In this document: piece after piece, positions 121-31,109 of the stretch | How positions within the stretch are numbered: the first letter of the stretch is position 1 | How the letters are laid out: each line of letters starts with the position of its first letter | Assembly (NCBI RefSeq): GCF_000283555.1 | Contig: NC_016012.1 | Span: 1,230,001 to 1,262,000 of the forward strand | Reading direction: 5' to 3' | Source of the DNA: Candidatus Arthromitus sp. SFB-rat-Yit | Lineage (GTDB): Bacteria > Bacillota > Clostridia > Clostridiales > Clostridiaceae | Length of the DNA stretch: 32,000 nt | Notes under the pieces: generated by a model | The model's input: only the letters and a program-made list of their open reading frames with translations | What the model was told of the DNA's origin: nothing | The model's database searches: none | Position numbers and translations under genes: made by a program

Positions 121-2286
121 TTACTCTACTCTTAATCCAAGACTATATAAGAAGTTTCTAGTTTCTGACTCACCAAGCATTCTTTCAGATATAGCCTGCA
201 TAGCCGCAGTTCTATCTCCAACTTGTGCAATTGTTTCTTCTAAAGTCTTAACCCACCAAGCAAGTCCTTCAGAATCTGATGTTCTTCCTGTAACAGATCT
301 ATACATACGCTCTACGTACTTAGTATTATCTAAGTTTTTCTCTTTATATTCTTGTTCGTTAACTATATTAGACGTGAAATAATTAACTGAAAACTCTTGT
401 GAAGAAAGTTTTGATGTCCAATATGCCATTCCATCTGGATCACCATCTCTTAAGAAGAATATATTATAGAAACCTTCAATCCACTCTTTTGCATTTGTAA
501 TTTTCTTAGTTGTAAATGGCTCTATATCCATAGCTAACTCTTGTCCATCTTTAAGCACAACTACTAATTCAAGTCCTTCAGTTAAATTGTTTGGAATTAT
601 TCCATATAACTTAACTAAATTCTCTTTAGTATCATAGAATGAACTTGCAATTGAATCTCCAACAATTGAAACATCTTTTATAATTCCATTTGGATCATTA
701 AATAATATTTCAAATTCCGCTTTAGTTGGAGTAACATTCTTAAGTTCAAATGATTTTAATAAATCTCCTTCTTCTCCAGCTGAAGTACCATTTCCAAGTG
801 TTCTTATCGTCATAGGATTTACAGAAATAACATCATAATTTGTAAACCTTCTGTTTATATCACCATCTCCAGAGTTAAACGTAACAATTAATTCCGTAAA
901 CTTATAATCTGTTCCAGACTTTAACCCTGTTATCAATAAATCTTTATACTCAGAGGCATTTTTTTGAGGATCCTTTAAAGTATTATCAAGTTTAGCATAA
1001 GACTGCATAGATCCAATTTTAGTATCCTCTTTTAAAATCTTACCATCATAAAGATTTCCTTCCGAATCCTTTACTTGTATTCTCTTTATTGTATCCTCAG
1101 GATCATATAAAGCATCATAAAGTACTACTCCATCCTCCAAAGGTCTAACGTTAGCATGATTATATCCTTGTGCTTTATCTTCTTCTGAAAATGGACCAAT
1201 ATAACGGATTATATTATCATCAGTTGATACAATCTCACCTTTATCATCTACATCAACATTAACAAAATAAGAAACTGTAGGTTTAATTGCTAAAGGATCT
1301 AATGGATTTGTATTATCAATATTTATATTCTCTGTTAATAGAGGATCTAAATAAGGAATTATTCCTTTTTTACCTTCTATAGCAGTTTGAGTTGATGTTT
1401 TTTGAACTACACTCTTGTCCACAAGTGTTGGAAAAATCAAAGAACCACCAAAAGATATATTAGTTATCTCAGATCCTGTTGGTAATCCATAAATCTTAAA
1501 ATAAATATTCCCTTCTTTGTCTACAATTTTAGGAGCATTATAAACATTTGTATACTGATTTATCTTACCTGTTGTGGTATCCATAACTAAATCCTCAATT
1601 GATATCTTTTTAGTTTCAGTTTTAGCACCACTTGTATATGTCACATTAAGTGTAAAATCTTTATTCACCAAATTGCCTGACTCATCTTTCATACCAAGTG
1701 AATTTTGTATAATTGTCGCAAGAGTTTCTTGTTGAACTAATTCAATCTGAGAACCCTTTCCACTTGATAAAATATTTAAATTCTTAGTATATTCATTAAC
1801 AGCTGCATCTATATTAGACTTCAAAGCAGCTTCAACATTACCCGAAAACTTAACCTTGATATAAGCATATCCACCTGTTGATTTATCCCTTAAGTACGAT
1901 TTTTGATAACCTTGCATATCTTCTCTTGCTACAACTGAAGTATTTCGAATTACCCCACCTTCAACTCCAGTTATTGTTAAAAACTGCTCTTCTGCATTTA
2001 CTGACGAAGAAGATTTAACAAAATCTTCCGTTCCTTTTAATGGTAAAACTTCGTTCTCATCATACTTACCATTACCATTAAAATCAACTGCACCTGGATT
2101 CGTTCCAGCTGGCAACTCCATGTTTGAAAGGTTAATCGTAAATTGGCTATCCCCTTCAACATATCTACTTTGCTGTGCTGGTACAGCCCAAGCAAATTTC
2201 GAACCGATATGAGTCATCACACCTGAAGCAACAGATAAAGATAAAAATATCCCGATTAATTTCTTCATAAATTTTTTACTAAACAT
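121..2286 (-). CDS. Secreted surface protein: signal peptide, FN3/Ig-like modules, tandem C-terminal DUF4214-type repeats
   Basis: 721-aa ORF with RBS GGAGGAAG 5 nt upstream of the ATG. N-terminal signal peptide is MFSKKFMKKLIGIFLSLSVASGVMTHIGSKFAWA. The C-terminus carries two repeats, FYNIFFLRDGDPDGMAYWTSKL and YVERMYRSVTGRTSDSEGLAWWVKTL, matching the DUF4214 pattern (hydrophobic-x-x-x-Y...R-x-x-D-x-x-G-x-x-[YW]-W). It is collinear with the 974-aa ORF, e.g. GNIYFKIYGLPTGSEITNISF versus GLIYVTLRGLPTDIKITNIEL. Confidence 0.8.
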   Translation of the reverse strand: MFSKKFMKKLIGIFLSLSVASGVMTHIGSKFAWAVPAQQSRYVEGDSQFTINLSNMELPAGTNPGAVDFNGNGKYDENEVLPLKGTEDFVKSSSSVNAEEQFLTITGVEGGVIRNTSVVAREDMQGYQKSYLRDKSTGGYAYIKVKFSGNVEAALKSNIDAAVNEYTKNLNILSSGKGSQIELVQQETLATIIQNSLGMKDESGNLVNKDFTLNVTYTSGAKTETKKISIEDLVMDTTTGKINQYTNVYNAPKIVDKEGNIYFKIYGLPTGSEITNISFGGSLIFPTLVDKSVVQKTSTQTAIEGKKGIIPYLDPLLTENINIDNTNPLDPLAIKPTVSYFVNVDVDDKGEIVSTDDNIIRYIGPFSEEDKAQGYNHANVRPLEDGVVLYDALYDPEDTIKRIQVKDSEGNLYDGKILKEDTKIGSMQSYAKLDNTLKDPQKNASEYKDLLITGLKSGTDYKFTELIVTFNSGDGDINRRFTNYDVISVNPMTIRTLGNGTSAGEEGDLLKSFELKNVTPTKAEFEILFNDPNGIIKDVSIVGDSIASSFYDTKENLVKLYGIIPNNLTEGLELVVVLKDGQELAMDIEPFTTKKITNAKEWIEGFYNIFFLRDGDPDGMAYWTSKLSSQEFSVNYFTSNIVNEQEYKEKNLDNTKYVERMYRSVTGRTSDSEGLAWWVKTLEETIAQVGDRTAAMQAISERMLGESETRNFLYSLGLRVE

Positions 2287-2296
2287 TTCTTCCTCC

Positions 2297-2332
2297 TTGA
2301 AAGAATTAAATTTTTAAGATTAATCTTTCAAA
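2297..2332 (-). promoter_or_regulatory. Inverted repeat in the 5' leader of the 721-aa gene, abutting its Shine-Dalgarno
   Basis: TTGAAAGA (2297-2304) and TCTTTCAA (2325-2332) are perfect 8-bp arms separated by 20 nt. On the mRNA the 3' arm runs directly into GGAGGA. Confidence 0.3.
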
Positions 2333-2432
2333 CCGATAAATTTATAAATCTAAATTCATGTTATGTTCACATAATCGGAATATTTTTATTTTTATTTACT
2401 ATGTATAGTTATTTTTATTTAATTTTTTATGT

Positions 2433-3557
2433 TCAGTTATTCGAAATCAATTTCATATACTCTTTACTCGATTCCATATTTAAAAACTTATCCAAAAGTT
2501 CAATTTTACTCTCATCAACAGTCTCCTTATTAGAAAATTTTTCATTAAACTCTTCCAAAGTGATTATTGACACTCTTCCATTTATTATTTTTTTATTAGC
2601 TAAAAAATAAATACTATCAACTATCTCTTTATTAGTTGTATTTATTAAATCAAATTCATCACTCAAAATAATTTCACTCAATATACTCTTTATATCAACT
2701 ACATTATTTAAAACATTATATAAATTTTGAGAATACTCTTTTTCAGTTGGATATCTCTTTAAAACTTGAGAATAAATTTTAACAAAATAATTTTCAAGTT
2801 CTGAACCATAGTCCATTAAAAGTTTTGAAATTATAAACTTTATTTTATTTTGATCCTTATCGTAAGAAACTATTTCCACATTCAAATACTGCTTTCCTGG
2901 AATCAAATTGCCAATTATTAATTTGTTGTTATTCTTATCATAATTTACACTTAAACCCGAAACTTTATTTCCATTAAAATCAGCTGTAATTGTAAATTTT
3001 GAATTTGGATCTATGTTAATATTTTCCGGAATATCAACCGAACTAGTTACTCCCTTTGTTGTGTAACCATTAAGTGCAAAAACATTTTCAAAATTTTGAT
3101 ATAACTCATCTTCTATATTAATCATTAAAATATCACTCATATAAATTTTATCTCCTTTTTTAAGTGACATCTTCAAATACAAATTTACATTCTTATCCAA
3201 GAAATCCAGATTTTTGTATAAATCCTTATCAAAATTTTCATCAATTTTAATATTAAATCTCTCTATGTAACTATCTTCTGTATTAATATCTTTAGTATGA
3301 ATGGAAAAAATATAATCTTTTAAATTTTTAGAATTAATTTCATTCAAATTATACATAATGTAATTAATTAAATCATTTTTAGTTAGTTTATTAGTATTGA
3401 TAGGTGATAAAAATAGCTTATCATCTTTTATACCAATAAATTCTTTACCCAAAATTTTTGTATCTACAGTTTTTAATATGAAATCTAAATTTATAGTTAC
3501 AAGAAGTATACAAATAAAAACAACTATACCAATAAAATTACGTAATTTATAATTCAA
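2433..3557 (-). CDS. N-terminally membrane-anchored protein with one FN3-like module and a degenerate DUF4214-like tail
   Basis: 374-aa ORF with a TTG start 7 nt after AGGAGGTG. Single N-terminal hydrophobic helix FIGIVVFICILLVTINLDFIL. The module LIIGNLIPGKQYLNVEIVSYDKDQNKIKFII resembles modules in the 721- and 974-aa proteins. The tail YFVKIYSQVLKRYPTEKEY...ILSDEF is DUF4214-like. Confidence 0.7.
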   Translation of the reverse strand: MNYKLRNFIGIVVFICILLVTINLDFILKTVDTKILGKEFIGIKDDKLFLSPINTNKLTKNDLINYIMYNLNEINSKNLKDYIFSIHTKDINTEDSYIERFNIKIDENFDKDLYKNLDFLDKNVNLYLKMSLKKGDKIYMSDILMINIEDELYQNFENVFALNGYTTKGVTSSVDIPENINIDPNSKFTITADFNGNKVSGLSVNYDKNNNKLIIGNLIPGKQYLNVEIVSYDKDQNKIKFIISKLLMDYGSELENYFVKIYSQVLKRYPTEKEYSQNLYNVLNNVVDIKSILSEIILSDEFDLINTTNKEIVDSIYFLANKKIINGRVSIITLEEFNEKFSNKETVDESKIELLDKFLNMESSKEYMKLISNN

Positions 3558-3623
3558 TTACTTACACCTCCTACATATTTTTAAAAAACAAAGGTATAGT
3601 TTTTCACACAAAAAACTTATATT

Positions 3624-4616
3624 TTAATTTTCTATATATTTATCCTTAAGTACCAAATCCACCCAGTTCAAATTACTCAAATACCAATTTATAGTATTTC
3701 TAATTCCTACTTCAAAATCAGTTATACACTTAAATCCAAGCTCATTATATATTTTACTACTATCAACTGAATATTTTAAATCATGCCCTAATCTATCATC
3801 TACATAAGTTATAAGAGAATAATCTTTATTTAACAATCTAAGTATTTTCTTTATCAAACTCAAATTATCAATTTCATATCCAGAGGATATATTATATATT
3901 TCTCCTTTTTTGCCTTCTTTTATAATCTTATCAATAGCCATAGAATGATCATGAACATACACCCAATCACGTATATTTTTCCCATCGCCATATACAGGTA
4001 TCTTATTACCCTTGAGTGCATTTACAATAACAACAGGTATTAACTTTTCTGGAAATTGATATGATCCATAATTATTTGTACATCTAGATATTGTTACATT
4101 AAGTTTAAACATCTTAAAATAACTCATAACTAACATATCCGCTGATGCCTTTGAAACTGAATAAGGTGAAGATGGTCTTAATATATCTCCTTCTTCAAAA
4201 CTTTTATCATCCTCTAATTTCAAATCACCATATACTTCATCAGTTGAAATTTGATGATATCTATTAACACCATACTTCAAACACATATCCATCAAATTCT
4301 TAGTTCCTATAATGTTAGTTTCTAAAAATACTTGTCCATTATATATTGATTTATCTACATGAGATTCTGCAGCAAAATTTACTACAATATCGAAATCTTC
4401 ATTTTGAAAAACTTTATCCAAAAAATTATTATCTAAAATATTCCCTCTATAAAATTTAAAATTTATATTTTGTCTAACAAGCTCTAAGTTTTCAAGATTC
4501 CCCGCATATGTCAATGCATCTATACAAGTAACATATATATCCCTATATTTGTTAATCATATAGTGAATAAAATTGCTTCCTATAAACCCTGCTCCACCTA
4601 CTACACAAATTTTCAT
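3624..4616 (-). CDS. rfbB: dTDP-glucose 4,6-dehydratase
   Basis: 330 aa. Rossmann motif VVGGAGFIGSNF, the STDEVYG motif, catalytic YxxxK in PYSVSKASAD, and NIRDWVYVHDH. Collinear with RmlB proteins as I remember them. No rmlA, rmlC or rmlD lies adjacent. Confidence 0.85.
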   Translation of the reverse strand: MKICVVGGAGFIGSNFIHYMINKYRDIYVTCIDALTYAGNLENLELVRQNINFKFYRGNILDNNFLDKVFQNEDFDIVVNFAAESHVDKSIYNGQVFLETNIIGTKNLMDMCLKYGVNRYHQISTDEVYGDLKLEDDKSFEEGDILRPSSPYSVSKASADMLVMSYFKMFKLNVTISRCTNNYGSYQFPEKLIPVVIVNALKGNKIPVYGDGKNIRDWVYVHDHSMAIDKIIKEGKKGEIYNISSGYEIDNLSLIKKILRLLNKDYSLITYVDDRLGHDLKYSVDSSKIYNELGFKCITDFEVGIRNTINWYLSNLNWVDLVLKDKYIEN

Positions 4617-4857
4617 AAACCCCTCCTACTTAAAAATTAGATATAAAAATTTATCTAATCTCTATAACGTTATAAGTCTACTATAATTTTTACTTTTCTT
4701 CTACTTTAATAAAAATAATTTCCTTGAATTAATTTTAAATACTAATATAATAATTCTTAATAATCTTCATAAAAATAATACTTGTCTATTTACAATATTA
4801 TATTAAAAATATTTAACTGTGAAGATTATTTAGTTTTATATAAAGGTGAATTTAAAA

Positions 4858-6597
4858 ATGGATAAAAAAATATATATCGAAAATATTCAAGCATCCATAA
4901 AAAAAATTGCTTGCGATTTAGTAATAAAAAATATAACAATTGTAGATGTATTTCAAAATTCTTCGTTCGTATCAGATGTTGCTATTCATAATGGTTATAT
5001 AGTTGGTCTTGGGGATTACTCTGGAAAAAACGAAATAGATGGAAGCAAAAAATATATTTGCCCTGGTCTAATAGATGCTCATGCCCATATAGAATCATCT
5101 CTTTTAACTCCAAAAGAATACTACAAAACTGCTCTCATACATGGAATAACTTCTGTAATTATAGATCCTCATGAAATTGCAAATGTTCTCGGACGCGATG
5201 GGATTAATTTAATGATGGATCTTTCACGCGATATACCATTTGACTTTTACTTTATGCTACCTTCATGTGTACCTGCAACAGAATTTGAAAACTCTGGTGC
5301 AGTGTTAAATAGTTCTGATCTTTATCCATTTTATAAAAATGATAAGGTTCTTGGATTAGCCGAAGTTATGGATCTAAAAGCTGTCCTTGAATGCGATAAA
5401 AACATGATAGATAAAATTTATGATGCTTATATAAATGATAAAGTCATAGATGGTCATTGTGCTGGATTCTCAATTGATCATATAAATGCATATACAACTG
5501 CTTATATAAAAACAGATCACGAATGTCATACCCATAAAGAATTAATTGAGAGAATTCGTCGTGGAATGTATGTTCATATAAGAGAAAGAACTGTAGCTAA
5601 AAATTTAAAAGAACTTATACAAGGAGTATCAATACACAATAGTAGAAAATTATGTTTATGTACAGATGATAAACACATAGATGATTTTGTGAAAGATGGA
5701 TCCATAGATAATTCAATAAAAATGTGTATTAAAAGCGGACTAAGCCCAGAAACTTCGATTCAAATGGCTACTATAAATACAGCTGAATGCTATAAATTAA
5801 ACAAAAAAGGTGCTATTGCACCTGGTTATATTGCAGACTTTTTAATACTCGATTCATTACACGATTTTAAAATTTCATCAGTATACAAAAATGGAAATTT
5901 AGTTGTTGAAAATAACAAGCTAGTAAACAAAGACATATCCAACATAAAAATATCTTTAAAAACTCAAATAAATATACCAAACCTCACAGAGGATCATTTT
6001 AAGATATCCATCAAAAACAAATCACTTTTAAATGTTATAGAAATAATACCTAATAATTTAAATACTAATCATCTTAAACTAAATATATCTTCCCTCAATT
6101 TAAATCACAGTGAATATTTTAATGCCTGCACTAAAAATGATTTATTAAAAATTGGTGTTATAGAAAGACATAATAACACTGGAAACATTGGACTTGGAAT
6201 TGTAAAAGGGCTTATGTTAAAATCTGGAGCAATAGCTACAACAATTGCTCATGATTCTCATAACTTAATTGTTTGTGGTACAAACGATAAAGATATGATA
6301 CTTGCATGTAATCACATAAAAAAAATTGCTGGTGGAATTGTAATTATAGATAAAGGAGAGGTTCTCTATTCCCTAAGCTTAGAAATCGGAGGACTTATAA
6401 CAAATAGAAAGACTCAAGATGTTATAAAAGACTTAGAAATTTTACACAGCAAAATTAACATACTCTCACCAAATTTGACCTTCAATCCATTTTTAACATT
6501 ATCCTTCTTATCTCTTCCAGTAATACCTGATATAAAAATTACTGACAAAGGTCTATTTGACACTATTAATTTTAAATTTATAAACGTATGTGAATAA
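4858..6597 (+). CDS. ade: Adenine deaminase
   Basis: Amidohydrolase HxH motif in GLIDAHAHIESS and the later IAHDSHNLIV motif. Length is ~580 aa. I prefer the ATG at 4858 (AAAGGTG about 10 nt upstream) over the GTG at 4846 used by the ORF track. Confidence 0.85.
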   Translation: MDKKIYIENIQASIKKIACDLVIKNITIVDVFQNSSFVSDVAIHNGYIVGLGDYSGKNEIDGSKKYICPGLIDAHAHIESSLLTPKEYYKTALIHGITSVIIDPHEIANVLGRDGINLMMDLSRDIPFDFYFMLPSCVPATEFENSGAVLNSSDLYPFYKNDKVLGLAEVMDLKAVLECDKNMIDKIYDAYINDKVIDGHCAGFSIDHINAYTTAYIKTDHECHTHKELIERIRRGMYVHIRERTVAKNLKELIQGVSIHNSRKLCLCTDDKHIDDFVKDGSIDNSIKMCIKSGLSPETSIQMATINTAECYKLNKKGAIAPGYIADFLILDSLHDFKISSVYKNGNLVVENNKLVNKDISNIKISLKTQINIPNLTEDHFKISIKNKSLLNVIEIIPNNLNTNHLKLNISSLNLNHSEYFNACTKNDLLKIGVIERHNNTGNIGLGIVKGLMLKSGAIATTIAHDSHNLIVCGTNDKDMILACNHIKKIAGGIVIIDKGEVLYSLSLEIGGLITNRKTQDVIKDLEILHSKINILSPNLTFNPFLTLSFLSLPVIPDIKITDKGLFDTINFKFINVCE

Positions 6598-6603
6598 AAT
6601 ACA

Positions 6604-6633
6604 TTGATTTATAATCGCAATTAAGTATATAAT
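6604..6633 (+). promoter_or_regulatory. Sigma-A type promoter for the codBA leader
   Basis: TTGATT (6604-6609), an 18-nt spacer, then TATAAT (6628-6633). Confidence 0.5.
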
Positions 6634-6649
6634 ATCTTTCAAGAAAACT

Positions 6650-6756
6650 AGTCCTTTAATTTTAGTCCAGAGAGACTAACAAGGCCTTATACGAATGTGT
6701 TTTTACATAATTAAAAATAATTCATTTTATAACGGCCTTTTGGCCGTTATTTTTTA
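6650..6756 (+). promoter_or_regulatory. PyrR-type transcription attenuator (binding loop, antiterminator, terminator)
   Basis: A hairpin UUAGUC-CAGAGA-GACUAA (6662-6679) contains AGUCCAGAGAGACU, matching the conserved PyrR-site core UCCAGAGAGG at all but its last base. A lower stem forms between CCUU (6653-6656) and AAGG (6681-6684). GGCCUUAU (6683-6690) can pair with AUAA(C)GGCC (6729-6737), which is the 5' arm of the terminator AUAACGGCC-UUUU-GGCCGUUAU-UUUUU (6729-6755). Confidence 0.7.
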
Positions 6757-6797
6757 TGCTAGTTTGATAAAAATTTAATACGATTGGAGATGGCTAA

Positions 6798-8039
6798 ATG
6801 GATAAAAATAAAATTTCAGATATGGATTATTCTTTATCTTCCGTAGATTCTAAAGACAGAAAAGGGTTCTTTTCAATATTTGTTATAATGCTAGGATTCA
6901 CATTTTTCTCTGCAAGTATGCTAACAGGTGCAACCATTGGAGTTTCTCTAAATTTAAATGACTTCCTAAAATCTATATTAATTGGAAACTTAATTCTCTC
7001 TATATACACAGGACTATTATCATACATAGGATCTGATACTGGATTATCGCTACACCTATTAACTAAATATTCATTTGGATTAAAGGGATCTTATCTCCCA
7101 TCATTCATTACAAGCATAACTCAAATAGGATGGTTTGGTGTAGGTATTTCAATGTTTGCAATACCCATATCAAATAGATTCAATATAAACCTTTATGTTC
7201 TTGTTCTAATAACAGGAATCTTAATGACTAGTACCGCTTACTTTGGAATGAAATCACTTACTATATTAAGTGCAATAGCTGTACCTGCTATTGCAATACT
7301 CGGTGGTCTATCACTACTTATAGCAATTCAATCAATTGGTGGATTCGGCGAACTATATAGTATAACTCCAACAAATCCGATGAATTTAATAACTGCAATA
7401 ACTTTATGTATTGGATCTTTTATAAGTGGAGGTACTGTTACTCCAGACTTTACTAGATTTTCAAAAACAAAGAAAATCGCGGTATCAACAACAGTAATAG
7501 CTTTCTTTATTGGTAACTCCTTAATGTTCTTATTTGGTGCAGTTGGTGCAATGGTTACCGGAAATTCTGATATAGCTGATGTAATGTTCTCTCAAGGCCT
7601 TATTATACCAGCTATAATTGTACTTGGACTTAATATATGGACAACAAATGATAATGCGATATATACAGCAGGTCTTGGACTCTCTAATATAACAAAAGTT
7701 AAAAAAAACAAATTAGTATTGATAAGTGGTTTAATTGGAACTCTCGGCTCTATATGGATTAATAATAATTTTACATCTTTCCTAACTTTATTAAATTCAA
7801 TGCTACCTCCAATCGGAGGTGTTGTCATCGCAGATTACTTTTTCATAAAGAAACTCAAATACGATAAAATAGAAATTGCAAAATTCAAAGAGGTTAATCC
7901 AATAGCTATAATATCATTTATTATTGGATTTTTAGTTGCAAATTTTATATCATTTGGTATACCTGCCATAAATGCTATTATTTCAACAATAATTATTTAT
8001 ATTATTGGAATGAAAATTTTTAAAAATAAGGATGTGTAA
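6798..8039 (+). CDS. codB: Cytosine/purine permease (NCS1 family)
   Basis: 413-aa polytopic membrane protein (about 12 hydrophobic segments) with RBS GGAGA 7 nt upstream. It lies immediately upstream of cytosine deaminase, separated by 2 nt. Confidence 0.75.
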
Positions 8040-8041
8040 TA

Positions 8042-9310
8042 TTGTTAATTAAAAATTTGAAACTCAAAGGAAAAAAAGGAATTTATGATATAAGAATTAA
8101 GGATGGTATATTCCATGAAATCTCAAATAATTTAATTCCCCTTAAAAATGAAGATGTAATAGAAGGAAACTTCAATTTAGCACACCCCCCTTTCATAGAA
8201 CCACATATCCATTTAGATACTGTACTTACAGCTGGTGAACCTAAATGGAATAAAAGCGGCACACTCTTTGAAGGAATACAAGTATGGAATGAGAGGAAAA
8301 ATTTCTTAACACATGACGATATTAAAAGTCGTGCAAAGAAAGCTATTAAATGGCAAATAGCAAATGGTATACAATTTGTTAGAACTCATGTTGATACTAC
8401 AGATAAGAATTTAACTGCAATCAAAGCAATGATTGAACTAAGAGAAGAACTTAAAGACTCTATAGAAATACAAATTGTCGCATTCCCTCAAGAAGGAATT
8501 CTATCCTACCCTAATGGAATTGAATTATTAGAGGAGTCTATAAAACTTGGTGCTGATGTTTTAGGTGGAATTCCACATTTTGAATTTACTCGAGAATACG
8601 GAGTTCAATCTATAGATTTAATTTTTTCATTAGCTGAAAAATATAACAAACCTATAGATGTACATTGTGATGAAATCGATGATGAGCAATCAAGATTTTT
8701 GGAAGTTCTAGCAACTCGTGCATATGAAACTGGATTAAAAAATAAAGTTACTGCAAGTCACACAACTGCAATGGGTTCATATAATGATGCCTACACATAT
8801 AAATTATTTAGAATTCTCAAGATGAGTGAAATCAATTTTATATGTAATCCTCTTGTAAATATACATCTTCAAGGTAGATTCGATAGTTATCCAAAGAGAA
8901 GAGGAGTTACTCGAGTAAAGGAATTGAATGAATCTTCGATAAATGTTTGCTTTGGTCACGATGATATTTTCGATCCATGGTATCCCCTTGGATGTGGAAA
9001 TATGCTAGACGTTCTCCACATGGGATTGCACATTTGCCAAATGATGGGGTATGATGATATAAACGATTCACTTAAATTCATATCATATAACAGTTCTAAA
9101 ACTCTAAACATACAAGATAATTACGGAATAGAAGAAGGAAAACCCGGAAATTTAATAATACTTAATGGTACTAATGACTACGACATCATTCAAAGGAAAA
9201 GCTCAATAATATACTCAATACGAAATGGAAAAATAATTTCAAATACCACTCCTTCAAAAACATTTATTAATATAGATAATAAATCAGAAGAAATAAACTT
9301 TAAAAAATAA
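8042..9310 (+). CDS. codA: Cytosine deaminase
   Basis: 422 aa. [12 protein letters not shown] matches the CodA metal-binding HxH region. Also present are VHCDE and GHDD motifs typical of the amidohydrolase fold. TTG start with AAGGATG upstream. Confidence 0.85.
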
Positions 9311-9342
9311 GAGATGCAAATACATGCATCTCTTTTATTTTT
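9310..9342 (+). terminator. Rho-independent terminator of codBA
   Basis: AGAGATGCA (9310-9318) pairs with TGCATCTCT (9325-9333) and is followed by TTTATTTTT. Confidence 0.75.
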
Positions 9343-9381
9343 GTCTGCATATTAAAAACTCTAAGCTCATTCTCAATCTAA

Positions 9382-9410
9382 TTGTAAACATTATCCTTTA
9401 ATGATATAAT
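9382..9410 (+). promoter_or_regulatory. Sigma-A type promoter of the glycosyltransferase gene
   Basis: TTGTAA (9382-9387), a 17-nt spacer, then TATAAT (9405-9410). Confidence 0.5.
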
Positions 9411-9480
9411 CTTATATCATTGGAAATAAATATAATAATAACTTTTTATAATAAAAATTTGATTTGAAAGGTGGTTAACT

Positions 9481-10887
9481 ATGGTAATCATAGATTCTAT
9501 AATAAATAGCATCGATATAGATTATTTCAAGTTCAATTTAAATTTTCATAAATATGTACTTCAAAAACTAAAGACGGATAATTTCACAATTGATGAAGAC
9601 TTTGAAAGTAAGTTAAATAAACGCATAAAAGTTTTAAGCACGATAAATGGTACATGCCCTAATATTTTAAAATTTTTCATAAATGATGATTATATACAAT
9701 ATAAAGATGACCTAACTAATGAAAACCTAGTAGAATTAATAAATATTTTTTCTGATGATACACCAATAAAATTAAGTGCAAATCTAATTGTATTTAACGA
9801 AGAGCGTTGTATTGAAAGATCATTAAATGCTATTTCCACTTTCGCCGATGAAATATTAGTTTTAGATACAGGATCAACAGATAATACAGTAAAAATAATC
9901 AAAGAAAAATTTCCAAATGTTAAGCTATATAAAGATAAATGGAGAAAAGATTTTGCATACTCAAGAAACTTATTAATAGATAGATCCAATAATGATTGGA
10001 TATTATCTATAGATGCAGATGAAACCCCAACAGATGAATTTTATCTCATAAAAGATGTTATTTCATTATTTAATAATTTCAACTCAAACGAAAAACATCC
10101 ATTGGTATTTTCTCCAACAATAGATTCACTGGGTCAAAAAATAAATACTACAAAAAGAATTTTCAATAAAAAACATGAGATGAAATTCGATGGCAAAATT
10201 CATGAAGAAATCGTATCTAAAAATGAATCAGAAATCAATTACATTATGCTTAATTTAACACTTCTTCATGATGGATATCATCCTGAAGTATTTAAAAGCA
10301 AAAATAAAGCTGAGAGAAATACTGAGATACTTGAAAAAATGATAAAACTTGAACCTAATAAAATTAGATGGTACTACTTCCTTGGACGTGAAAAAAATAT
10401 ATTAGGTCATGATATAGATGAATGTATAAAAATATTGAAATCAGGATTAAAATTAAAACATACTCAAAATTCCATTGAAAACTTTTATTATAATATTCTA
10501 ACACTCTTAGCTAAAATAGCTGTATCACATAAAAAATATGATTTATTAAAAGAAGTCATAGATCTTATGGAATACGAAATACCAAACTCACTGGATAGCT
10601 TTTATTTTCAACTCATACTTGAAAATGATTCTGTAATGAGTGATAAATTTGATCAAATAAACTCAATGGTTAAATCAATAGGAGATATAACAAATAAGGT
10701 TAACACAATAGATGGAACTTATTCTCATGTTCTTCACACTCTCGGGATTATATATCTTAGTTTCAGAGATTATACAAGAGCATTTTATTATTTTAATCAA
10801 ATAACATCCCCCAAAAATATAGAAGCAATTAAATATATTTTAATTCCTCTAAGAAGTCAAATAGATGATTTCTTAAAAAATAAATAA
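9481..10887 (+). CDS. Family-2 glycosyltransferase with N-terminal extension and C-terminal TPR-like helical domain
   Basis: 468 aa with no signal peptide or TM segment. GT2 core reads LIVFNEERCIERSLNAISTFADEILVLDTGSTDNT...WRKDFAYSRNLLIDRSNNDWILSIDADE (DxD-type DAD). The C-terminal ~190 aa is helical-repeat-like (RWYYFLGRE..., YSHVLHTLGIIYLSFRDYTRAFYYFNQ). RBS is AAAGGTGG. Confidence 0.75.
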   Translation: MVIIDSIINSIDIDYFKFNLNFHKYVLQKLKTDNFTIDEDFESKLNKRIKVLSTINGTCPNILKFFINDDYIQYKDDLTNENLVELINIFSDDTPIKLSANLIVFNEERCIERSLNAISTFADEILVLDTGSTDNTVKIIKEKFPNVKLYKDKWRKDFAYSRNLLIDRSNNDWILSIDADETPTDEFYLIKDVISLFNNFNSNEKHPLVFSPTIDSLGQKINTTKRIFNKKHEMKFDGKIHEEIVSKNESEINYIMLNLTLLHDGYHPEVFKSKNKAERNTEILEKMIKLEPNKIRWYYFLGREKNILGHDIDECIKILKSGLKLKHTQNSIENFYYNILTLLAKIAVSHKKYDLLKEVIDLMEYEIPNSLDSFYFQLILENDSVMSDKFDQINSMVKSIGDITNKVNTIDGTYSHVLHTLGIIYLSFRDYTRAFYYFNQITSPKNIEAIKYILIPLRSQIDDFLKNK

Positions 10888-10916
10888 AGTGAAGTTCAAA
10901 TGAACTTCACTTTTTA
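10888..10916. terminator. Bidirectional terminator between convergent genes
   Basis: AGTGAAGTTC (10888-10897) pairs with GAACTTCACT (10902-10911), a 10-bp stem with T/A runs on both sides. Confidence 0.75.
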
Positions 10917-10920
10917 TATA

Positions 10921-13845
10921 TTATTCAAATTTAATTCCTAATGTAGTTGCCATCGCTCTTACTTCATCAGTATCTAACATTCTTGATACAACAGCAGCTC
11001 TAGCTTGACTTTGAGGTTCTCCAGCTTGTATAGCTTTTTCGATTTCAGATGTCCAGAAAGTAACCCCTTCAGTTTCTCCAGCTCTATCTACTATAGCATA
11101 CATAGCTTCAACAAAGTTAGTATTGCTTAAGTTTTTCTCCAATAATTCAGGTGTAAACGAAAGTTGTCCTAAGAATCCTTTTAAAGTTTCTTCTTTAGCA
11201 GCCAATTTAGTAGTCCAGTATACTAGACCATCTCTATCTGGCTCTCTTGTAAAGAATGCTCTATAAACTCTTGAAACATATCCAGCTACGCCTGTTTCAC
11301 TTTGTGATTGAATAGTTGTTTTAAACGATGGTACAGTTAAAGTTGTACTCTTATCTCCATATCTTAATATCAATCTAAGATCTGTATAATCTGTATTAGA
11401 ATTAAGATCTGTTAACTCAATTACATTACTAGTAACATTATAAGTTGCTTTAACTCCATTAGATCCAGTTCCCGTAACTTCAACAGATATCATTTCTTTA
11501 TCAGTATTTTTAATCGTTGCGTTAACCGTTGCTGAGTTTGTAGTAACACCAGTTACATTAACACCTGCAGTTGAAACTTCAACTTTTGTAGTTCCAGCTC
11601 TTCCAGTTGCATATCTAGTTATGGCTTGTTGAGTTTTTGTACCATTAGATGGTATTGATCCTAATGCACCAGCTTTATCAGTTCTTATAGATGATACTCT
11701 ATTTCCATCCTCTGAAGTTGAAAACTCAAATTTAAAATCTGTAGATCTTCCAGCTTCAATTCCTGTTATAGTTATTTCAATCATTTCAGAAGCTGACTCA
11801 ACCGTACTCTCACTTCCTGTTATATGAGTATTCTCTAACAATGGATAGTCAATATCATAATCCCCAGATATACTGTTATTACCGTCTACATCCAATCCTT
11901 TAACAACTCTATAAGTTGTCTCAAAACTAACTCTTGAAGGATCTATTCTACTATAACTTCCATTATTATTTACATATACATCAACGCCACTTATGATATG
12001 GTCAGCATCTTTAATTCTTCCATAGAATCTTACTCCACCTGGAATTTGCTCATACTTAAGTTGTGAATCTATCCATAACTCAGATTTATAATCTTTATTT
12101 GTTTTTGCAAATATATTATTTTTTGCGTTATCAATATTTGTAGTTGAGTATGGGAATAACGAATCTCCACTTACAGAGTTATTTCTTCCTAAAGATATTG
12201 GATTTCCATATCTTTCTCTTCCATTTTCATTATAAACAGTTTCAATTGATAAAAAGTCATAACTTCTATCTCTATCTAAATTAGTGATCTCTACTGCAAA
12301 CCAGTTAGATGTAGATTTCTTGCCATCTTCAGATTTAACATTTTTAATAGTATAAGTCTCTCCAGCTCTTAATCCTCTAACTTCAAGTCTTTGTAAATTA
12401 CTAATATCGTCAACTTTAACTAAATAAGTTAATGTATCTAAACCAACATTAGCTTGGTATAATAAATCTCCTTTTACTAACTTGTCAAATCCAAATACTT
12501 GTGAAGTTTGATAATTTGACGTAGATATTGATAAATATTTATCACCTGTAACATAATTAGTAGCTTTCCTATCATCAAACCTTATTCTTTGACTTCTCTG
12601 ATCACCATTTATTGTATAATAAACATCAATATACTCAAAATCATAAGTAGTATTTGCATTTAATCCACCTATTTTAAGATCTCTATACCTTGTACCATGG
12701 TTAACTGTATCACCATTAGAAAGCTTACCAGTTTCAAAATCTCCAATTTGGGCTTCGTAGCTATCTCCACGTCTATCAACTACAGTAGCACCTGTTATAG
12801 TTTTATTTGTATCTTTAAAAAGATCTATTAAAGTTATTGTAGACCCTGTAGACTTAACAAATACATGTTCTCCACTATCAATTACATTATTTCTTCCATT
12901 TGATAACTCTTGATATTGGCTTTGATTACCAACCATCGCATATAAAGAATCAGTTAATATCCAAGTAGAAGTAGGAACTGTAGATATACCTGCGTTATAT
13001 GATATGCTATTTTGAACTGAATAGTTTGTAGCATCAACTTGTCCACTACTATAATTTGTAGCTACTGTCAATTTATCTCTAGAATCTAATTCAATATTAG
13101 TTATTTTTATATCTGTTGGAAGTCCTCTTAGTGTAACATAAATTAAACCATTCTCATCAACTAAAGATCTCAAATCATTAGAATTTGAAATTCTTCCTGA
13201 ATCTGTTTCAGGACAATCTAAGCTAAGCTCATTAAATCTTACAGTTGTTGTTCTAGTTCTACCATCACTCAATTCATAAGTGATTAAAAATCTTACATCC
13301 TGATTGCTATTATTAACAACATCAAAAGCAGTTAACAATTCACTAGCTAATCTTTCTTGATTTTGTGTATTAATTGCAACACCATTATTATGTCTATTTG
13401 CATTAACAGTATTTACGTTATTTCTATGCTCAGATACTGCATCATCAACGTATCTTCTAAACGTTCTTTCTAATTCTCCTGATAATCTTATACCTATTCT
13501 TGCAACTCCACCCTCATTTGCATCAGCTTTATAAGTTTTATTCGTACCGCTAACAGTTGTATCAGAAGTTAAAACCTCAGTTAAAATCTTTTCGATTGAG
13601 AAAACACTTTCTTCTGTCTTCTTAGCATTACTAGCTAATGTAACCTGAGTTGTACTTGTAAAACTATCCACATAACCTTTACTATTTAAAGTCCAACTAT
13701 TCTCATATCTTCCATCATTAATTTCTGCTGCATTAACTTTTATATTATTAACAGGTAAAACTGATAAAGTCATAGCTAACATCGCAATACCTGCAATCAA
13801 TTTTCTTAATTTTAAAGATTTCATACTTATCCTCCTAATTTTCAA
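10921..13845 (-). CDS. Large secreted surface protein (S-layer-like candidate): signal peptide, at least 4 FN3-like modules, tandem C-terminal DUF4214-type repeats
   Basis: 974-aa ORF with RBS AGGAGGA 6 nt upstream. The signal peptide ends ...LSVLPVNNIKVNA. Recurring modules include DLKIGGLNANTTYDFEYIDVYYTINGDQRSQRIRF, VEITNLDRDRSYDFLSIETVYNENGRERYG, ITITGIEAGRSTDFKFEFSTSEDGNR and IELTDLNSNTDYTDLRLILRYGDKSTTL. The tail has YVSRVYRAFFTREPDRDGLVYWTTKL and FVEAMYAIVDRAGETEGVTFWTSEI. Confidence 0.85.
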   Translation of the reverse strand: MKIRRISMKSLKLRKLIAGIAMLAMTLSVLPVNNIKVNAAEINDGRYENSWTLNSKGYVDSFTSTTQVTLASNAKKTEESVFSIEKILTEVLTSDTTVSGTNKTYKADANEGGVARIGIRLSGELERTFRRYVDDAVSEHRNNVNTVNANRHNNGVAINTQNQERLASELLTAFDVVNNSNQDVRFLITYELSDGRTRTTTVRFNELSLDCPETDSGRISNSNDLRSLVDENGLIYVTLRGLPTDIKITNIELDSRDKLTVATNYSSGQVDATNYSVQNSISYNAGISTVPTSTWILTDSLYAMVGNQSQYQELSNGRNNVIDSGEHVFVKSTGSTITLIDLFKDTNKTITGATVVDRRGDSYEAQIGDFETGKLSNGDTVNHGTRYRDLKIGGLNANTTYDFEYIDVYYTINGDQRSQRIRFDDRKATNYVTGDKYLSISTSNYQTSQVFGFDKLVKGDLLYQANVGLDTLTYLVKVDDISNLQRLEVRGLRAGETYTIKNVKSEDGKKSTSNWFAVEITNLDRDRSYDFLSIETVYNENGRERYGNPISLGRNNSVSGDSLFPYSTTNIDNAKNNIFAKTNKDYKSELWIDSQLKYEQIPGGVRFYGRIKDADHIISGVDVYVNNNGSYSRIDPSRVSFETTYRVVKGLDVDGNNSISGDYDIDYPLLENTHITGSESTVESASEMIEITITGIEAGRSTDFKFEFSTSEDGNRVSSIRTDKAGALGSIPSNGTKTQQAITRYATGRAGTTKVEVSTAGVNVTGVTTNSATVNATIKNTDKEMISVEVTGTGSNGVKATYNVTSNVIELTDLNSNTDYTDLRLILRYGDKSTTLTVPSFKTTIQSQSETGVAGYVSRVYRAFFTREPDRDGLVYWTTKLAAKEETLKGFLGQLSFTPELLEKNLSNTNFVEAMYAIVDRAGETEGVTFWTSEIEKAIQAGEPQSQARAAVVSRMLDTDEVRAMATTLGIKFE

Positions 13846-14125
13846 AACAAAGTTAAAAATTAATTTCCATTATTTCAGTGAAACTTGTATTGTGACCCTT
13901 CCTTTGTTAAATAATAACATTTGTAATCTTTTTTTAACATATTTGTATTACTTCATTTACCTAATATTTTTTGCTTTATTTTGTTATTTTCTCCTATTTT
14001 CTCTCTTTTTCTTAATTTTTTGTATTTTATACATAAAATAGAGTTTAAAATTGTTTTAAAAAACAATGAAGAGCATCTAAAATAAGATGCTCTAATAAAT
14101 TATCAAACTAAGGCATTACAAAAAT

Positions 14126-14153
14126 ATTTTAAAAATCAATCATCAATCGTCAA
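14126..14153 (-). promoter_or_regulatory. Candidate promoter for a long (~275 nt) leader of the 974-aa gene
   Basis: On the minus strand: TTGACG (14153-14148), a 16-nt spacer, then TAAAAT (14131-14126). Other AT-rich candidates exist, so this is tentative. Confidence 0.3.
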
Positions 14154-14425
14154 AGTTATAAATTAAATAAAATCATACTATAACATCACTAAATCTGCCA
14201 GAATATAGGAATAAATATATAGATAACCATACATTAAAAATGTTTATAATCAATAAATAACTATAAATAAAAGTACATATTTATTATACATAATGTATAC
14301 AAAATATTCAATAATATAAATAGTTATTATTTTTAAAAAAATAGATTGATTTATTTTTTCGTTTATTATATTTATTATAATTTATAATTATTCAATATAC
14401 CAATCACAAATCGGAGGATTAGTCA

Positions 14426-15157
14426 ATGAAAAATAAATTAAAATTACTTCATTTTATTATAGTTTATCCATCTATTTGGCTTATCTACTATGTATTTGAA
14501 CTAATATCAAAAAATATTTCAGATACATATAGCATGGTAATGAACTTATTACCAGCATTATTATTATTAATTATTTCATACTTATTTTATAAATACTGTG
14601 AAAAATCTATAATTCTTAAAGATGCTCACTTAACCATAATAATATTAATATTATTTGCAATTGACCAATTATCTAAAATAACTGTTTCTACGATATTTAG
14701 TAAAAATAATATATATTCTTTTAATATAATTCCAAATTATTTATCTATTACTCCAGATTTAAATGATAAAGGCTCATTTATAGCATCTAGATTCAATATA
14801 AACGCTCCTTTTGTGATTTTTATCACTTTGAATTTTTTAATTCTATTATTTATATTTTTTACATACAGATATATTTTCTATAAAAACCAAATAAATTCCA
14901 TAAATCAATTAACTTTTATATTTTTATTTTCAGGTGGTTTATGCTCTCTTATAGACAAATTATTCTGGGGTGGAAGTTTAGATTTCTTGCACATACATAA
15001 CTTATTTATTGCTGATATTAAGGATATTTTTATAACACTTGGTTTATGTAATTTCATTATATATAACATAAATTCAGATTATCAAATTAAAATAAAAGAT
15101 TTAATGAAATTTATAATAAAATTTTTAAAATTTAAAGGAGGTAAACATGAGTCCTAA
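14426..15157 (+). CDS. Divergent signal peptidase II (LspA)-family membrane protein with an N-terminal extension
   Basis: 243 aa with RBS GGAGGA 7 nt upstream. Blocks collinear with LspA: ILFAIDQLSKITV (AADQLTK region), ITPDLNDKGSF (HRNTGAAF region), SGGLCSLIDKLFWGGSLDFLHI (GGAxGNxxDR...VVDF region) and LFIADIKD (FNxAD). Both catalytic Asp positions are retained. About 70 extra N-terminal residues form two more hydrophobic helices. Confidence 0.6.
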   Translation: MKNKLKLLHFIIVYPSIWLIYYVFELISKNISDTYSMVMNLLPALLLLIISYLFYKYCEKSIILKDAHLTIIILILFAIDQLSKITVSTIFSKNNIYSFNIIPNYLSITPDLNDKGSFIASRFNINAPFVIFITLNFLILLFIFFTYRYIFYKNQINSINQLTFIFLFSGGLCSLIDKLFWGGSLDFLHIHNLFIADIKDIFITLGLCNFIIYNINSDYQIKIKDLMKFIIKFLKFKGGKHES

Positions 15158-16313
15158 TTTTTTAATAGAATTATGTTTAATTTTATTACTTACAAAAGTT
15201 TTAGGATCCATAACAAACAAACTAAGACTTACAAATGTCGTTGGTGCTTTAATAGCCGGAGTAATATTAGGTCCATCAGTATTAAAAATAGTTTCATACG
15301 ATACATTTTGGGAATATGCAGCAAATATAGGTGTAATACTCTTAATGTTTAACGCAGGACTCGAAACAGATATAGATCATCTAAAAAAGGTAGGAATGTC
15401 ATCTTTTTTAATAGCTCTACTAGGAGTTATCATTCCTTTAATTGTAGGATTTTCAATTGGATATTTCATAATGAACTTACCTTATTTAGATAGTTTGTTC
15501 TTAGGAATTATATTTACTCCAACATCTGTTTCTATAACATCTCAAACACTTAAAGACCTTAAAGTATTTTCTTCAAAATCTGGTTCTGCAATTATGGGAT
15601 CTGCAATTATAGATGATATTTTAGGGGTGTTTATTTTAACACTTTTTGGAGGGTCTCTTGGACAAGAAGTTAAAATACAATCAGTTGTAATAGGATTGCT
15701 ATTATTCTTCGTATTTGTATTCTTATTAATTAAATTCTTGCCTCCATTCTTAAATAATTTAAGTATAAATAAGGAACATAAACACAGAATGCCATTATAT
15801 GCCCTTATATTATGTTTTGCTATATCATTTATTAGCGAAGAATTCTTCCATGTTACTTCTATAATAGGAGCATATTTAACTGGTATTGTATTCTCTAAAT
15901 ATGTTTTCCAACATACAGTTTACAAACAACTTAATTATTTAAGTTACTTTATATTCTCTCCTATATTCTTTGCAAGTATAGGAATGCAAACCAAATTATC
16001 ATCCTTCAATAAAACTGTAATAATATTTACTTTAATTCTATTCATAGGTGCTGCATTAAGTAAATTCGTTGCATGTTTTATTACATCAAAAGTATTAGGA
16101 TACAACTTCAAAGACTCCTCACGTATAGGAGCTGGAATGATCTCAAGAGGGGAAGTTGCATTAATAATTATAAATATTGGTATAACTAATCAAATACTTA
16201 GTGAAAATCTAGTTTCACCTCTTATAATAGTTGTAATTTTAACTACAATTATTACTCCAATACTTTTATCTAGGCTTTACGCAAATATGAACAAAGAAGT
16301 TTTAATAAATTAA
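15147..16313 (+). CDS. Cation:proton antiporter (CPA2, NapA/KefB-like membrane domain)
   Basis: 388-aa polytopic protein with AGVILGPSVLK and ILLMFNAGLETD motifs typical of Na_H_Exchanger family proteins. RBS AAAGGAGG lies inside the upstream gene. The start overlaps the upstream gene by 11 nt. Confidence 0.8.
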   Translation: MSPNFLIELCLILLLTKVLGSITNKLRLTNVVGALIAGVILGPSVLKIVSYDTFWEYAANIGVILLMFNAGLETDIDHLKKVGMSSFLIALLGVIIPLIVGFSIGYFIMNLPYLDSLFLGIIFTPTSVSITSQTLKDLKVFSSKSGSAIMGSAIIDDILGVFILTLFGGSLGQEVKIQSVVIGLLLFFVFVFLLIKFLPPFLNNLSINKEHKHRMPLYALILCFAISFISEEFFHVTSIIGAYLTGIVFSKYVFQHTVYKQLNYLSYFIFSPIFFASIGMQTKLSSFNKTVIIFTLILFIGAALSKFVACFITSKVLGYNFKDSSRIGAGMISRGEVALIIINIGITNQILSENLVSPLIIVVILTTIITPILLSRLYANMNKEVLIN

Positions 16314-30867: not shown

Positions 30868-30896
30868 TAACCTCAAGCCCCTTATTAATTAAACTA

Positions 30897-31099: not shown

Positions 31100-31109
31100 C
31101 AATACTATT

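Follow-up and report, generated by a model that had tools for sequence, protein, structure and literature searches.

The locus described here encoded three proteins, named A, B and C, that ended in DUF4214-type repeats. It was located in a window of 32,000 nucleotides (the whole stretch of DNA that was analysed; contig NC_016012.1, positions 1,230,001 to 1,262,000). The window was derived from a rat strain of segmented filamentous bacterium (SFB), Candidatus Arthromitus sp. SFB-rat-Yit; protein A was 100% identical to a protein of this strain, and the guanine-cytosine (GC) content of the window was very low (about 27%). An earlier note, made from the sequence alone, had proposed that three paralogous exported proteins, a lone rmlB and a glycosyltransferase formed an uncharacterised surface system. 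The genes concerned were as follows.

121-2286, minus strand: protein A, 721 amino acids (aa), exported, tandem DUF4214 tail
2433-3557, minus strand: protein B, 374 aa, membrane anchor, predicted degenerate DUF4214 tail
3624-4616, minus strand: rmlB, dTDP-glucose 4,6-dehydratase, 330 aa (TIGR01181)
9481-10887, plus strand: predicted SunS/ThuS/GmaR-type protein glycosyltransferase (GT), 468 aa
10921-13845, minus strand: protein C, 974 aa, exported, tandem DUF4214 tail

Exported proteins with DUF4214 tails

Proteins A and C shared one architecture, in which a signal peptide was followed by a head domain, a series of FN3-like modules and a tandem tail (all on the minus strand).

2185-2286: signal peptide of A (aa 1-34), then a disordered linker
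1357-2052: head domain of A, apparently SFB-restricted (aa 79-310)
517-1149: FN3-like modules of A (aa ~380-590)
124-501: tandem DUF4214 tail of A (aa 596-721)
13729-13845: signal peptide of C (aa 1-39)
12946-13716: head domain of C, homologous to that of A (aa ~44-300)
11311-12858: several FN3-like modules of C (aa ~330-845)
10924-11304: tandem DUF4214 tail of C (aa 848-974)

The signal peptide of A had a positively charged start, a hydrophobic core and the cleavage motif AWA↓V, and the same layout was present in C with the motif VNA↓A. Together with the membrane anchor of B (see below), this agreed, as seen by eye and hydropathy, with the proposal that all three proteins were exported, two of them through cleavable signal peptides.

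The Pfam DUF4214 family (PF13946, gathering cutoff 23.2 bits) was matched by A at 50.4 bits (E 2.3e-13) and by C at 40.7 bits (E 2.4e-10), in two stretches each, so the repeat was indeed doubled in the two large proteins. As had been expected, hmmscan placed both tails above the cutoff and found no known anchor domain next to them. Namely, no Pfam match to SLH, CWB2, LysM or choline-binding domains was obtained for A, B or C at E<=0.1, and a pattern search of the three proteins found neither LPXTG nor a lipobox; lipoprotein or sortase anchoring was ruled out by this pattern search. According to BLASTP, A and C were related both in the N-terminal half with the head (E 3e-20) and in the tail (E 8e-22). 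Thus, the claim of three paralogues held for A and C by head and tail, but not for B, which was related to them only from its last module onward.

In the AlphaFold model of A, the domains had predicted confidence (pLDDT) values of 85-94, and the head at residues 79-310 consisted of two long helices packed on beta-sheets. A phmmer search with this head against 1.84 billion cluster representatives gave 4 matches only, all from the SFB families of A and C; the sequence of A had no match among solved structures at E<=1, and HMMER did not detect the head of A and C in the published T helper 17 (Th17) antigen of SFB. The head domain therefore appears to be restricted to SFB. The module L-x-I-x-G-L...Y-x-F, which had been noted as common to the proteins, was borne out and is predicted to be an FN3/Ig-like sandwich, because Foldseek matched A and B to tandem FN3 arrays in the PDB (fibronectin, titin, contactins and SiiE) at E 2.6e-7 and weaker (to 1e-5), and one orthologue of C (P0068) matched Pfam fn3 at 25.1 bits against a cutoff of 25. 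The profile of the tail matched the REP domains of the phycobilisome linker ApcE (E 6e-16) and the structure 2KY4 (E 1e-5).

Proteins A and C were acidic (isoelectric points of 4.65 and 4.96), had masses of 76 and 103 kDa and contained 0-1 cysteine, with none in A. Such a composition is typical of, and compatible with, the class of surface or surface-layer (S-layer) proteins. As a separate observation, the GC content of the A and C genes was about 30-34%, versus about 23-26% in B, rmlB and GT; the values for A and C resembled those of secA and prfB elsewhere in the window and were compatible with high expression.

Protein B, on the minus strand as well, was built from the following parts.

3468-3551: N-terminal membrane anchor, a 28-residue helix (aa 3-30)
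3108-3440: alpha/beta domain (aa 40-150)
2817-3086: single beta-sandwich (aa 158-247)
2436-2810: predicted degenerate tandem DUF4214 tail (aa 250-374)

The N-terminal helix of B had no cleavage motif, and a membrane anchor was found only in B among the families of A, B, C and the Th17 antigen. BLASTP gave no significant similarity between B and A or C, which ruled out B as their full paralogue; only its last module and tail were related, since hhalign of the B family against the A/C family aligned B 200-369 collinearly with A 545-714 (168 columns, E 1.6e-5, probability 79%). The DUF4214 score of B itself was 12.8 bits (E 0.13), under the gathering cutoff. When the family members were scanned singly, 13/13 matched DUF4214 at E<=1, the best at 3.5e-7. 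The AlphaFold model of B (pLDDT 83) contained a membrane helix, an alpha/beta domain, a beta-sandwich and eight helices at 253-372, and the pattern of these helices matched that of helices 599-715 in the model of A. Thus, the tail of B appears to be a degenerate DUF4214, visible only through the orthologues, hhalign and the AlphaFold model, which fits the degenerate repeat that had been noticed in the small protein. In a gap-free alignment of the tails of A, C, B and the Th17 antigen, the scaffold residues were kept in B and G-x-x-[YF]-W was gone in both repeats. The tail of B was therefore probably not used as in A and C, and the loss of the motif may mark residues important for ligand binding.

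Antigen orthology and proposed retention on the envelope

The word "uncharacterised" had to be dropped. In 2012, Pamp et al. described a family of secreted proteins that was specific to SFB, carried DUF4214 tails and may form structures on the surface. Their Cluster.1 and Cluster.3 comprised SFB-restricted proteins with a predicted secretion signal and C-terminal regions resembling DUF4214 and phycobilisome linkers. Proteins A and C had the same properties: signal sequences, a tail matching phycobilisome linkers and homologues that, like those of B, were all from SFB (rat, mouse, turkey, chicken 'Dwaynia gallinarum' and metagenome-assembled genomes). Moreover, the mouse orthologues of C and A were documented CD8 and immunoglobulin G (IgG) antigens.

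Mouse orthologue of C: SFBM_1251 / AID45222.1 / EGX28308.1 = SFBNYU_003240
Mouse orthologue of B: SFBM_1245 / AID45216.1 / EGX28314.1
Mouse orthologue of A: SFBM_1244 / AID45215.1 / EGX28315.1 = SFBNYU_003310 (SFB3310)
Th17 antigen: SFBNYU_003340 (SFB3340, P3340), EGX28318.1; AID45212 in SFB-mouse-NL

The mouse orthologues were obtained through a cluster look-up, and the mouse-type locus sequence came from a Logan contig and cluster members; a contig scan for homologous loci gave 3 loci, with no mouse SFB among them. Accessions were mapped to tags by the rule that one accession number equals ten tag units per gene, which was fixed by 003340 and by SGLIYVTL/003240. Since these two anchor points fixed the mapping, A was the orthologue of SFBNYU_003310.

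The peptide SGLIYVTL has been reported as an H2-Kb CD8 T-cell epitope from SFBNYU_003240. The mouse orthologue of C carried exactly this peptide at aa 226-233, and its counterpart in the rat protein was NGLIYVTL (aa 232-239, nucleotides 13129-13152). SFB3310 was among only four SFB proteins recovered by phage display with serum antibodies, a result that concerned IgG binding only. A literature search by specific locus tags found only 003240. The rat DVQFNGQVPSKSD presumably resembles the 7B8 Th17 epitope, a likeness that was not used as evidence. Thus, the orthologues of A and C were expressed in vivo and seen by the host immune system, and three paralogous DUF4214 genes within about 30 kb were targets of CD8, IgG and Th17/IgA responses. 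A separate case concerned the peptide EMMDQPEFK, which mass spectrometry has revealed in fluid from the human gut (PMC6034559). Its close variant EMMSEPEFK occurred in another SFB DUF4214 family (P0090-P0092; SFB-turkey and relatives, about 1100 aa), which suggests that the human peptide came from a different DUF4214 family and not from A, B or C.

The locus extended beyond the limits that had been given for it and beyond the window itself. To the left, the contig of A continued with a 298-aa open reading frame (ORF; p298), a GT2 gene (GT2b), a 1037-aa DUF4214 protein, NAGPA, GatD and MurT. The 1037-aa protein occupied the position of the Th17 antigen, three genes past the left edge of the window; this Th17-antigen orthologue matched Pfam DUF4214 at 38.1 bits.

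A role of DUF4214 on the SFB surface has already been suggested. According to a cryo-electron tomography (cryo-ET) study of 2025, the usual Clostridial wall-binding motifs (SLH etc.) were largely absent from SFB, and DUF4214 was the likely surface-anchoring domain. The Th17 antigen was abundant, localised over the SFB surface and judged to be wall-associated, and DUF4214 has also been reported in SFB peptidoglycan hydrolases. The published view of SFB thus matched retention by the DUF4214 tail (PMC3371716; PMC12780176). In another bacterium, P. putida, the RTX-DUF4214 protein Psh binds, and is retained on, the O-antigen of lipopolysaccharide (LPS), and it masks phage receptors (bioRxiv 10.64898/2026.09.02.748959).

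Proteins A and C were thus probably Sec-exported surface proteins held non-covalently on the envelope by their tandem DUF4214 tails. The assignment of the tail as the retention module followed from the lack of any other anchor, the wall localisation of the Th17 antigen, the presence of DUF4214 on hydrolases and the case of Psh; the tail remained the only candidate for this role, as had been proposed before. In the suggested arrangement, an SFB-only head would be carried on a stalk of FN3-like beta-sandwiches ending in an eight-helix tail related to phycobilisome linkers. This tail would most likely bind a wall glycopolymer or peptidoglycan non-covalently, in the way also proposed for the paralogous Th17 antigen at a distance of three genes. 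Protein B would be a short membrane-tethered relative that kept the tail scaffold, lost the conserved motif and probably uses its tail differently. The genes for these proteins would be interleaved with sugar-nucleotide and glycosyltransferase genes, one of which may glycosylate proteins directly in the cytoplasm.

Several points weighed against retention by the tails. Only visual inspection and hydropathy supported the export signals, and in the model of A the inter-domain confidence was low (pTM 0.42), with about 25% of the residues at pLDDT <50. The contact of Psh with the O-antigen has not been mapped to DUF4214, which its authors only suggest (bioRxiv 10.64898/2026.09.02.748959), and the closest solved relatives of DUF4214, the phycobilisome linkers, make protein-protein rather than glycan contacts. 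Antigenicity would also fit secreted proteins, so that it does not prove surface retention. Beyond the observed gene structure, domain architecture, homologies, antigen orthology and synteny, we infer the anchoring role of DUF4214 and its binding to the SFB wall, the ligand and any glycosylation.

Glycosylation genes, conservation and alternative explanations

The glycosyltransferase GT matched TIGR04195 (the SunS family) at 204.4 bits (E 2.7e-60, model positions 30-411/421), and the equivalog cutoff of 350 was not reached. It also matched 7MSK (E 1.2e-48 over aa 70-444), which is annotated only as Glyco_trans_2-like and which we take to be ThuS, as well as SunS (E 1e-44) and GmaR of Listeria (E 4.8e-23). 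A GT-A domain with D178-A-D180, where 'IDADE' aligned with 'IDADN', was followed by a helical substrate-binding C-terminal domain homologous to that of SunS/ThuS. Thus, GT appears to be a protein glycosyltransferase of the SunS/ThuS/GmaR type, a homologue and not a SunS equivalog. Such enzymes act in the cytoplasm, where they move a sugar from a nucleotide donor straight onto a Cys, Ser or Thr residue of a polypeptide. The gene had been labelled "GT2-TPR" in the earlier note; its GT2 part was confirmed, but Pfam found no tetratricopeptide repeats (TPR), the C-terminal helical domain being SunS/ThuS-like, and the reading of this label as a polysaccharide synthase had to be abandoned for an enzyme type that acts on polypeptides.

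Among ORFs of at least 20 aa around GT and in the rest of the window, no gene was found for a glycocin-type Cys precursor, a C39 transporter or a thiol-disulfide oxidoreductase; a glycocin cluster around GT was ruled out by the lack of Cys-rich precursor, C39 transporter and thioredoxin genes. No flagellin gene was located near GT. Enzymes of the GmaR type modify flagellin, and flagellin is, by analogy, a credible alternative as a possible substrate of GT. With respect to transcription, GT and C were convergent and the following sites surrounded GT.

9309-9334: terminator-like hairpin 3' of the amidohydrolase gene (pattern match)
9382-9410: promoter-like site upstream of GT (signal scan)
10886-10913: bidirectional terminator-like hairpin between GT and C (pattern match)

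The signal scans suggest that GT formed its own transcription unit; the promoter scan was uninformative (106 sites vs 103.7 expected). On the opposite strand, rmlB was located directly upstream of B and A in the same orientation, and a pattern scan found no terminator-like site between rmlB, B and A.

The ORF p298 (L001:12270-13166) was a collinear degenerate paralogue of GT (BLASTP E 6e-6; hhalign E 1.3e-4, probability 53%) that had neither the DxD motif nor core GT-A segments. Its orthologue in chicken SFB (L003:6711-8579) was fused to a TylF-type sugar O-methyltransferase (PF05711, E 2.3e-22) and was located near rmlB-rmlD. The rat rmlB itself was genuine, as had been noted, with 431.1 bits against the TIGR01181 equivalog cutoff of 365.1. 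In the chicken SFB 'Dwaynia gallinarum', rmlD directly followed rmlB (L003:1661-2503; TIGR01214, 255.7 vs 224), while rat and mouse had only 66-88 bp at this place, and rmlB was the only one of the RmlABCD genes found in the window, as in the rat and mouse loci. The lone rat rmlB is therefore best read as a remnant of a larger deoxy-sugar cassette, which appears as rmlB-rmlD in bird SFB. A complete dTDP-rhamnose pathway has been reported only in human and turkey SFB, and an incomplete one in rodent SFB (PMC13153320, 2026), so that a deoxy-sugar glycan was less well supported for the rat strain.

The conservation of the locus was assessed by tblastn of the rat genes against five other contigs (rat, mouse-type, chicken and two further SFB lineages). 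The common order was C, GT, amidohydrolase-permease-adenine deaminase, rmlB-B-A-p298-GT2b (1-3 copies)-Th17 antigen (0-2 copies) and NAGPA-GatD-MurT. Between rat and the most distant contigs L004/L005, identity was 82% for GT, 70-76% for the nucleobase-salvage genes, 68% for A, 57-60% for C and 42-45% for B, and the Th17 antigen was 40% identical or absent. Between rat and the mouse-type locus, it was 95% for GT, 85% for A, 73% for B and about 50% for the Th17 antigen over the available part. GT was thus the best-conserved gene of the locus (82% across lineages). The faster divergence of A, B and C, compared with 70-82% for the enzymes of the locus, is typical of exposed proteins, and Pamp et al. 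noted the fastest divergence for exposed proteins in the SFB DUF4214 family.

Two side observations concerned the antigen end of the locus. In two rat-type contigs (L001:15086-18199 vs L002:5184-8342), the Th17-antigen orthologues were 71% identical, whereas the flanking A, p298, GT2b, NAGPA, GatD and MurT genes were 99-100% identical; therefore, the Th17-antigen gene seems to be hypervariable or exchanged by recombination between near-identical strains. In L004 (uncultured Arthromitus metagenome-assembled genome, 9347-17288), there was no Th17-antigen orthologue, GT2b was present in three tandem copies and the only match to B was 144 aa long, which suggests that gene content at this end was fluid.

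It is possible, and put forward here only tentatively, that the locus was a surface-glycoprotein cassette, in which GT, perhaps together with p298, GT2b and rmlB, O-glycosylated A, C and/or the Th17 antigen in the cytoplasm before Sec export. Consistent with this, GT had full-length homology to ThuS, SunS and GmaR and kept DxD (TIGR04195, E 2.7e-60), and it was adjacent to C; this adjacency and the order rmlB-B-A-p298-GT2b-Th17 antigen were kept in five SFB lineages, with GT as the best-conserved gene. The degenerate paralogue p298, TylF-fused in chicken SFB beside rmlB-rmlD, the absence of a glycocin-type peptide, C39 transporter or flagellin gene nearby, and the Ser/Thr-rich linkers in C and the Th17 antigen pointed in the same direction. 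However, the signal scans suggest that GT, convergent with C, was transcribed separately, its score was under the SunS equivalog cutoff (204 vs 350 bits), and the rhamnose pathway of rodent SFB was incomplete. Since A was cysteine-free, SunS-style S-glycosylation would be impossible for A. GmaR-type enzymes modify flagellin, and SFB offspring have been described as flagellated. Finally, a literature search found no report of glycosylation of SFB surface proteins or flagellin.

It was unlikely that A and/or C were the lattice subunits of the S-layer of intracellular offspring or of the hair-like layer of filaments, with the tail docking the lattice to the wall and the FN3 stalk forming the hairs. 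Both layers exist: in rat and mouse SFB, the 2025 cryo-ET study saw intracellular offspring covered by an S-layer with a spacing of about 8 nm and filaments covered by a hair-like layer, whose subunits had a length of 28 +/- 4 nm and a width of about 1.4 nm. The Th17 antigen was judged to be a component of neither, A and C were acidic, nearly cysteine-free proteins of 76 and 103 kDa with rod-forming FN3-like modules, their GC content was above that of neighbouring genes, and the orthologue of A was among the few antibody targets. But SFB encode about 19 or more DUF4214 proteins, so that the prior for any one of them was low, the size match was a rough estimate rather than a measurement, and the promoter scan gave no information on expression. 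The union of both ideas was improbable, namely a self-contained coat cassette where GT, the catalytically dead p298 and GT2b/rmlB would O-glycosylate DUF4214 proteins including the Th17 antigen, and where A and/or C would be S-layer or hair subunits docked by their tails.

Just as improbable was that the DUF4214 tail served as a protein-protein docking module, by which A, C and the Th17 antigen would dock not on a glycan but on a protein partner such as membrane-anchored B. The Pfam00427 REP domains that the tail profile matched in ApcE bind within rings of phycobiliproteins, and B was membrane-tethered, lay between rmlB and A without a terminator-like site and kept the tail scaffold with a changed surface motif. 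However, B was truncated in L004, which kept A and C, DUF4214 was reported to occur in SFB peptidoglycan hydrolases, enzymes that act on the wall, and Psh bound a glycan-bearing surface. That A and C were soluble effectors or adhesins released to act on the host epithelium was very unlikely: their orthologues reached major histocompatibility complex class I and antibody pathways, epithelial cells have been reported to take up SFB antigens where the bacteria attach, and the head was lineage-restricted and quickly diverging, but a paralogue with the same tail was found over the whole bacterial surface, a conserved C-terminal module common to many exported proteins is a typical retention signature, and uptake of wall-associated antigen would explain immunogenicity without release. 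Retention of A and C on the envelope through their tails stayed our preferred explanation.

The remaining features of the window were only loosely connected with the surface proteins. The locus was interrupted by the following genes.

4846-6597, plus strand: adenine deaminase (Pfam)
6649-6757, plus strand: PyrR leader (Rfam RF00515)
6798-8039, plus strand: cytosine/purine permease (Pfam)
8042-9310, plus strand: cytosine-deaminase-like amidohydrolase (Pfam)

Pfam confirmed all three genes, in line with the proposal that unrelated nucleobase-salvage genes split the locus, and the interruption was kept in all SFB lineages examined. These genes (4846-9310) were probably outside the surface system. 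The PyrR leader scored 55.3 bits against a gathering score of 54 and had its own terminator hairpin (6729-6750); located before the permease gene, it suggests that the permease and cytosine-deaminase-like genes were likely pyrimidine-regulated and transcribed apart from the adenine deaminase gene.

Upstream of C, a 580-bp intergenic region (13846-14425) had a very high AT content (the 14-15 kb bin had about 19% GC) and contained several promoter-like sites and a terminator-like hairpin (14070-14093) on the strand of C. It matched no Rfam family and may be a long leader or regulatory region. The gene at 14426-15157 (plus strand) encoded a divergent signal-peptidase-II-like protein (PF01252, E 1.8e-15) that scored well under the NCBIfam LspA cutoff and had an N-terminal extension of roughly 70 aa; its 3' end overlapped the start of a cation/proton-antiporter-like gene (15147-16313). 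This LspA-like gene was probably unrelated to the anchoring of A, B and C. At the far end of the window, a raiA RNA motif (RF03072, 191 bits; 30895-31101, minus strand) was located directly upstream of a 180-aa ORF (30334-30876) that, judged by eye, resembled a gene for a ribosome hibernation factor.

Comparison with known systems

Both the DUF4214 family and the surface role proposed for it were already known (published in 2012 and restated in 2025), and in this respect the observation was mainly a rediscovery. What was new is that a single locus held the orthologues of three mapped antigens, that FN3-like and phycobilisome-linker folds could be assigned, that the head was SFB-restricted, that the tail of B had lost its motif and that rmlB was a remnant. 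A SunS/GmaR-type protein glycosyltransferase, accompanied by a dead paralogue, was also newly recognised as the part of the locus with the highest conservation, and the link to protein-glycosylation genes was the one new lead. In the overall interpretation of the earlier note, the exported modular proteins and the tail as the sole retention candidate stood; the system was not uncharacterised, and a deoxy-sugar glycan had become less likely in the rat strain.

SFB is a model commensal for the induction of Th17, IgA and epithelial CD8 T-cell responses, and of the small number of antigens that have been mapped in SFB, this one locus encoded three (3240, 3310 and 3340). Questions of retention, layer composition and glycosylation were thus narrowed to a small conserved gene set. 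That SFB surface antigens are glycosylated is a testable hypothesis suggested by the conserved context, and if they are, this would matter for the recombinant proteins, tetramers and nanobodies that are currently employed.

The closest counterparts were the SFB proteins of Pamp et al. (2012) and the Th17 antigen P3340, which had the same signal peptide, variable body and tandem DUF4214 tail and belonged to the same locus. The tail of the Th17 antigen aligned without gaps with those of A, C and B, whereas its head differed from that of A and C, and B differed by its membrane anchor and degenerate tail. Psh was similar to A and C in being exported with a C-terminal helical DUF4214, and it is retained on a cell-surface glycan. 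However, Psh has a diderm host, type I secretion, an RTX body and an LPS O-antigen ligand, whereas SFB is monoderm and its proteins combine Sec export with an FN3 body. The phycobilisome linkers (ApcE, CpcC; 2KY4, 7EYD) had a helical fold homologous to the tail of A and C, but they are cytoplasmic and bind phycobiliprotein rings, while A and C would be extracellular in a bacterium without phycobilisomes.

For GT, the SunS/ThuS glycocin S/O-glycosyltransferases and the O-GlcNAc transferase GmaR shared the GT-A and helical domains over aa 70-444 and the DxD motif. In contrast to them, GT was below the SunS cutoff, had no glycocin genes nearby and was not located beside flagellar genes. The slg clusters of Geobacillus and Paenibacillus resembled the SFB locus in their adjoining rml and glycosyltransferase genes; however, they encode a Wzm/Wzt transporter and a WsaB-type oligosaccharyltransferase, and neither the window nor the extended locus L001 contained an slg-type transporter (Wzm/Wzt) or an O-antigen-ligase-like gene. 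Finally, S-layer proteins (SlpA/CWB2 of C. difficile, Sap/EA1/SLH of B. anthracis) were similar to A and C in being acidic, cysteine-poor and exported, with a conserved candidate anchoring module. Unlike SlpA or Sap/EA1, A and C had no SLH or CWB2 according to Pfam. At the level of the organism, SFB and B. anthracis were alike in that both switch their surface layer during development.

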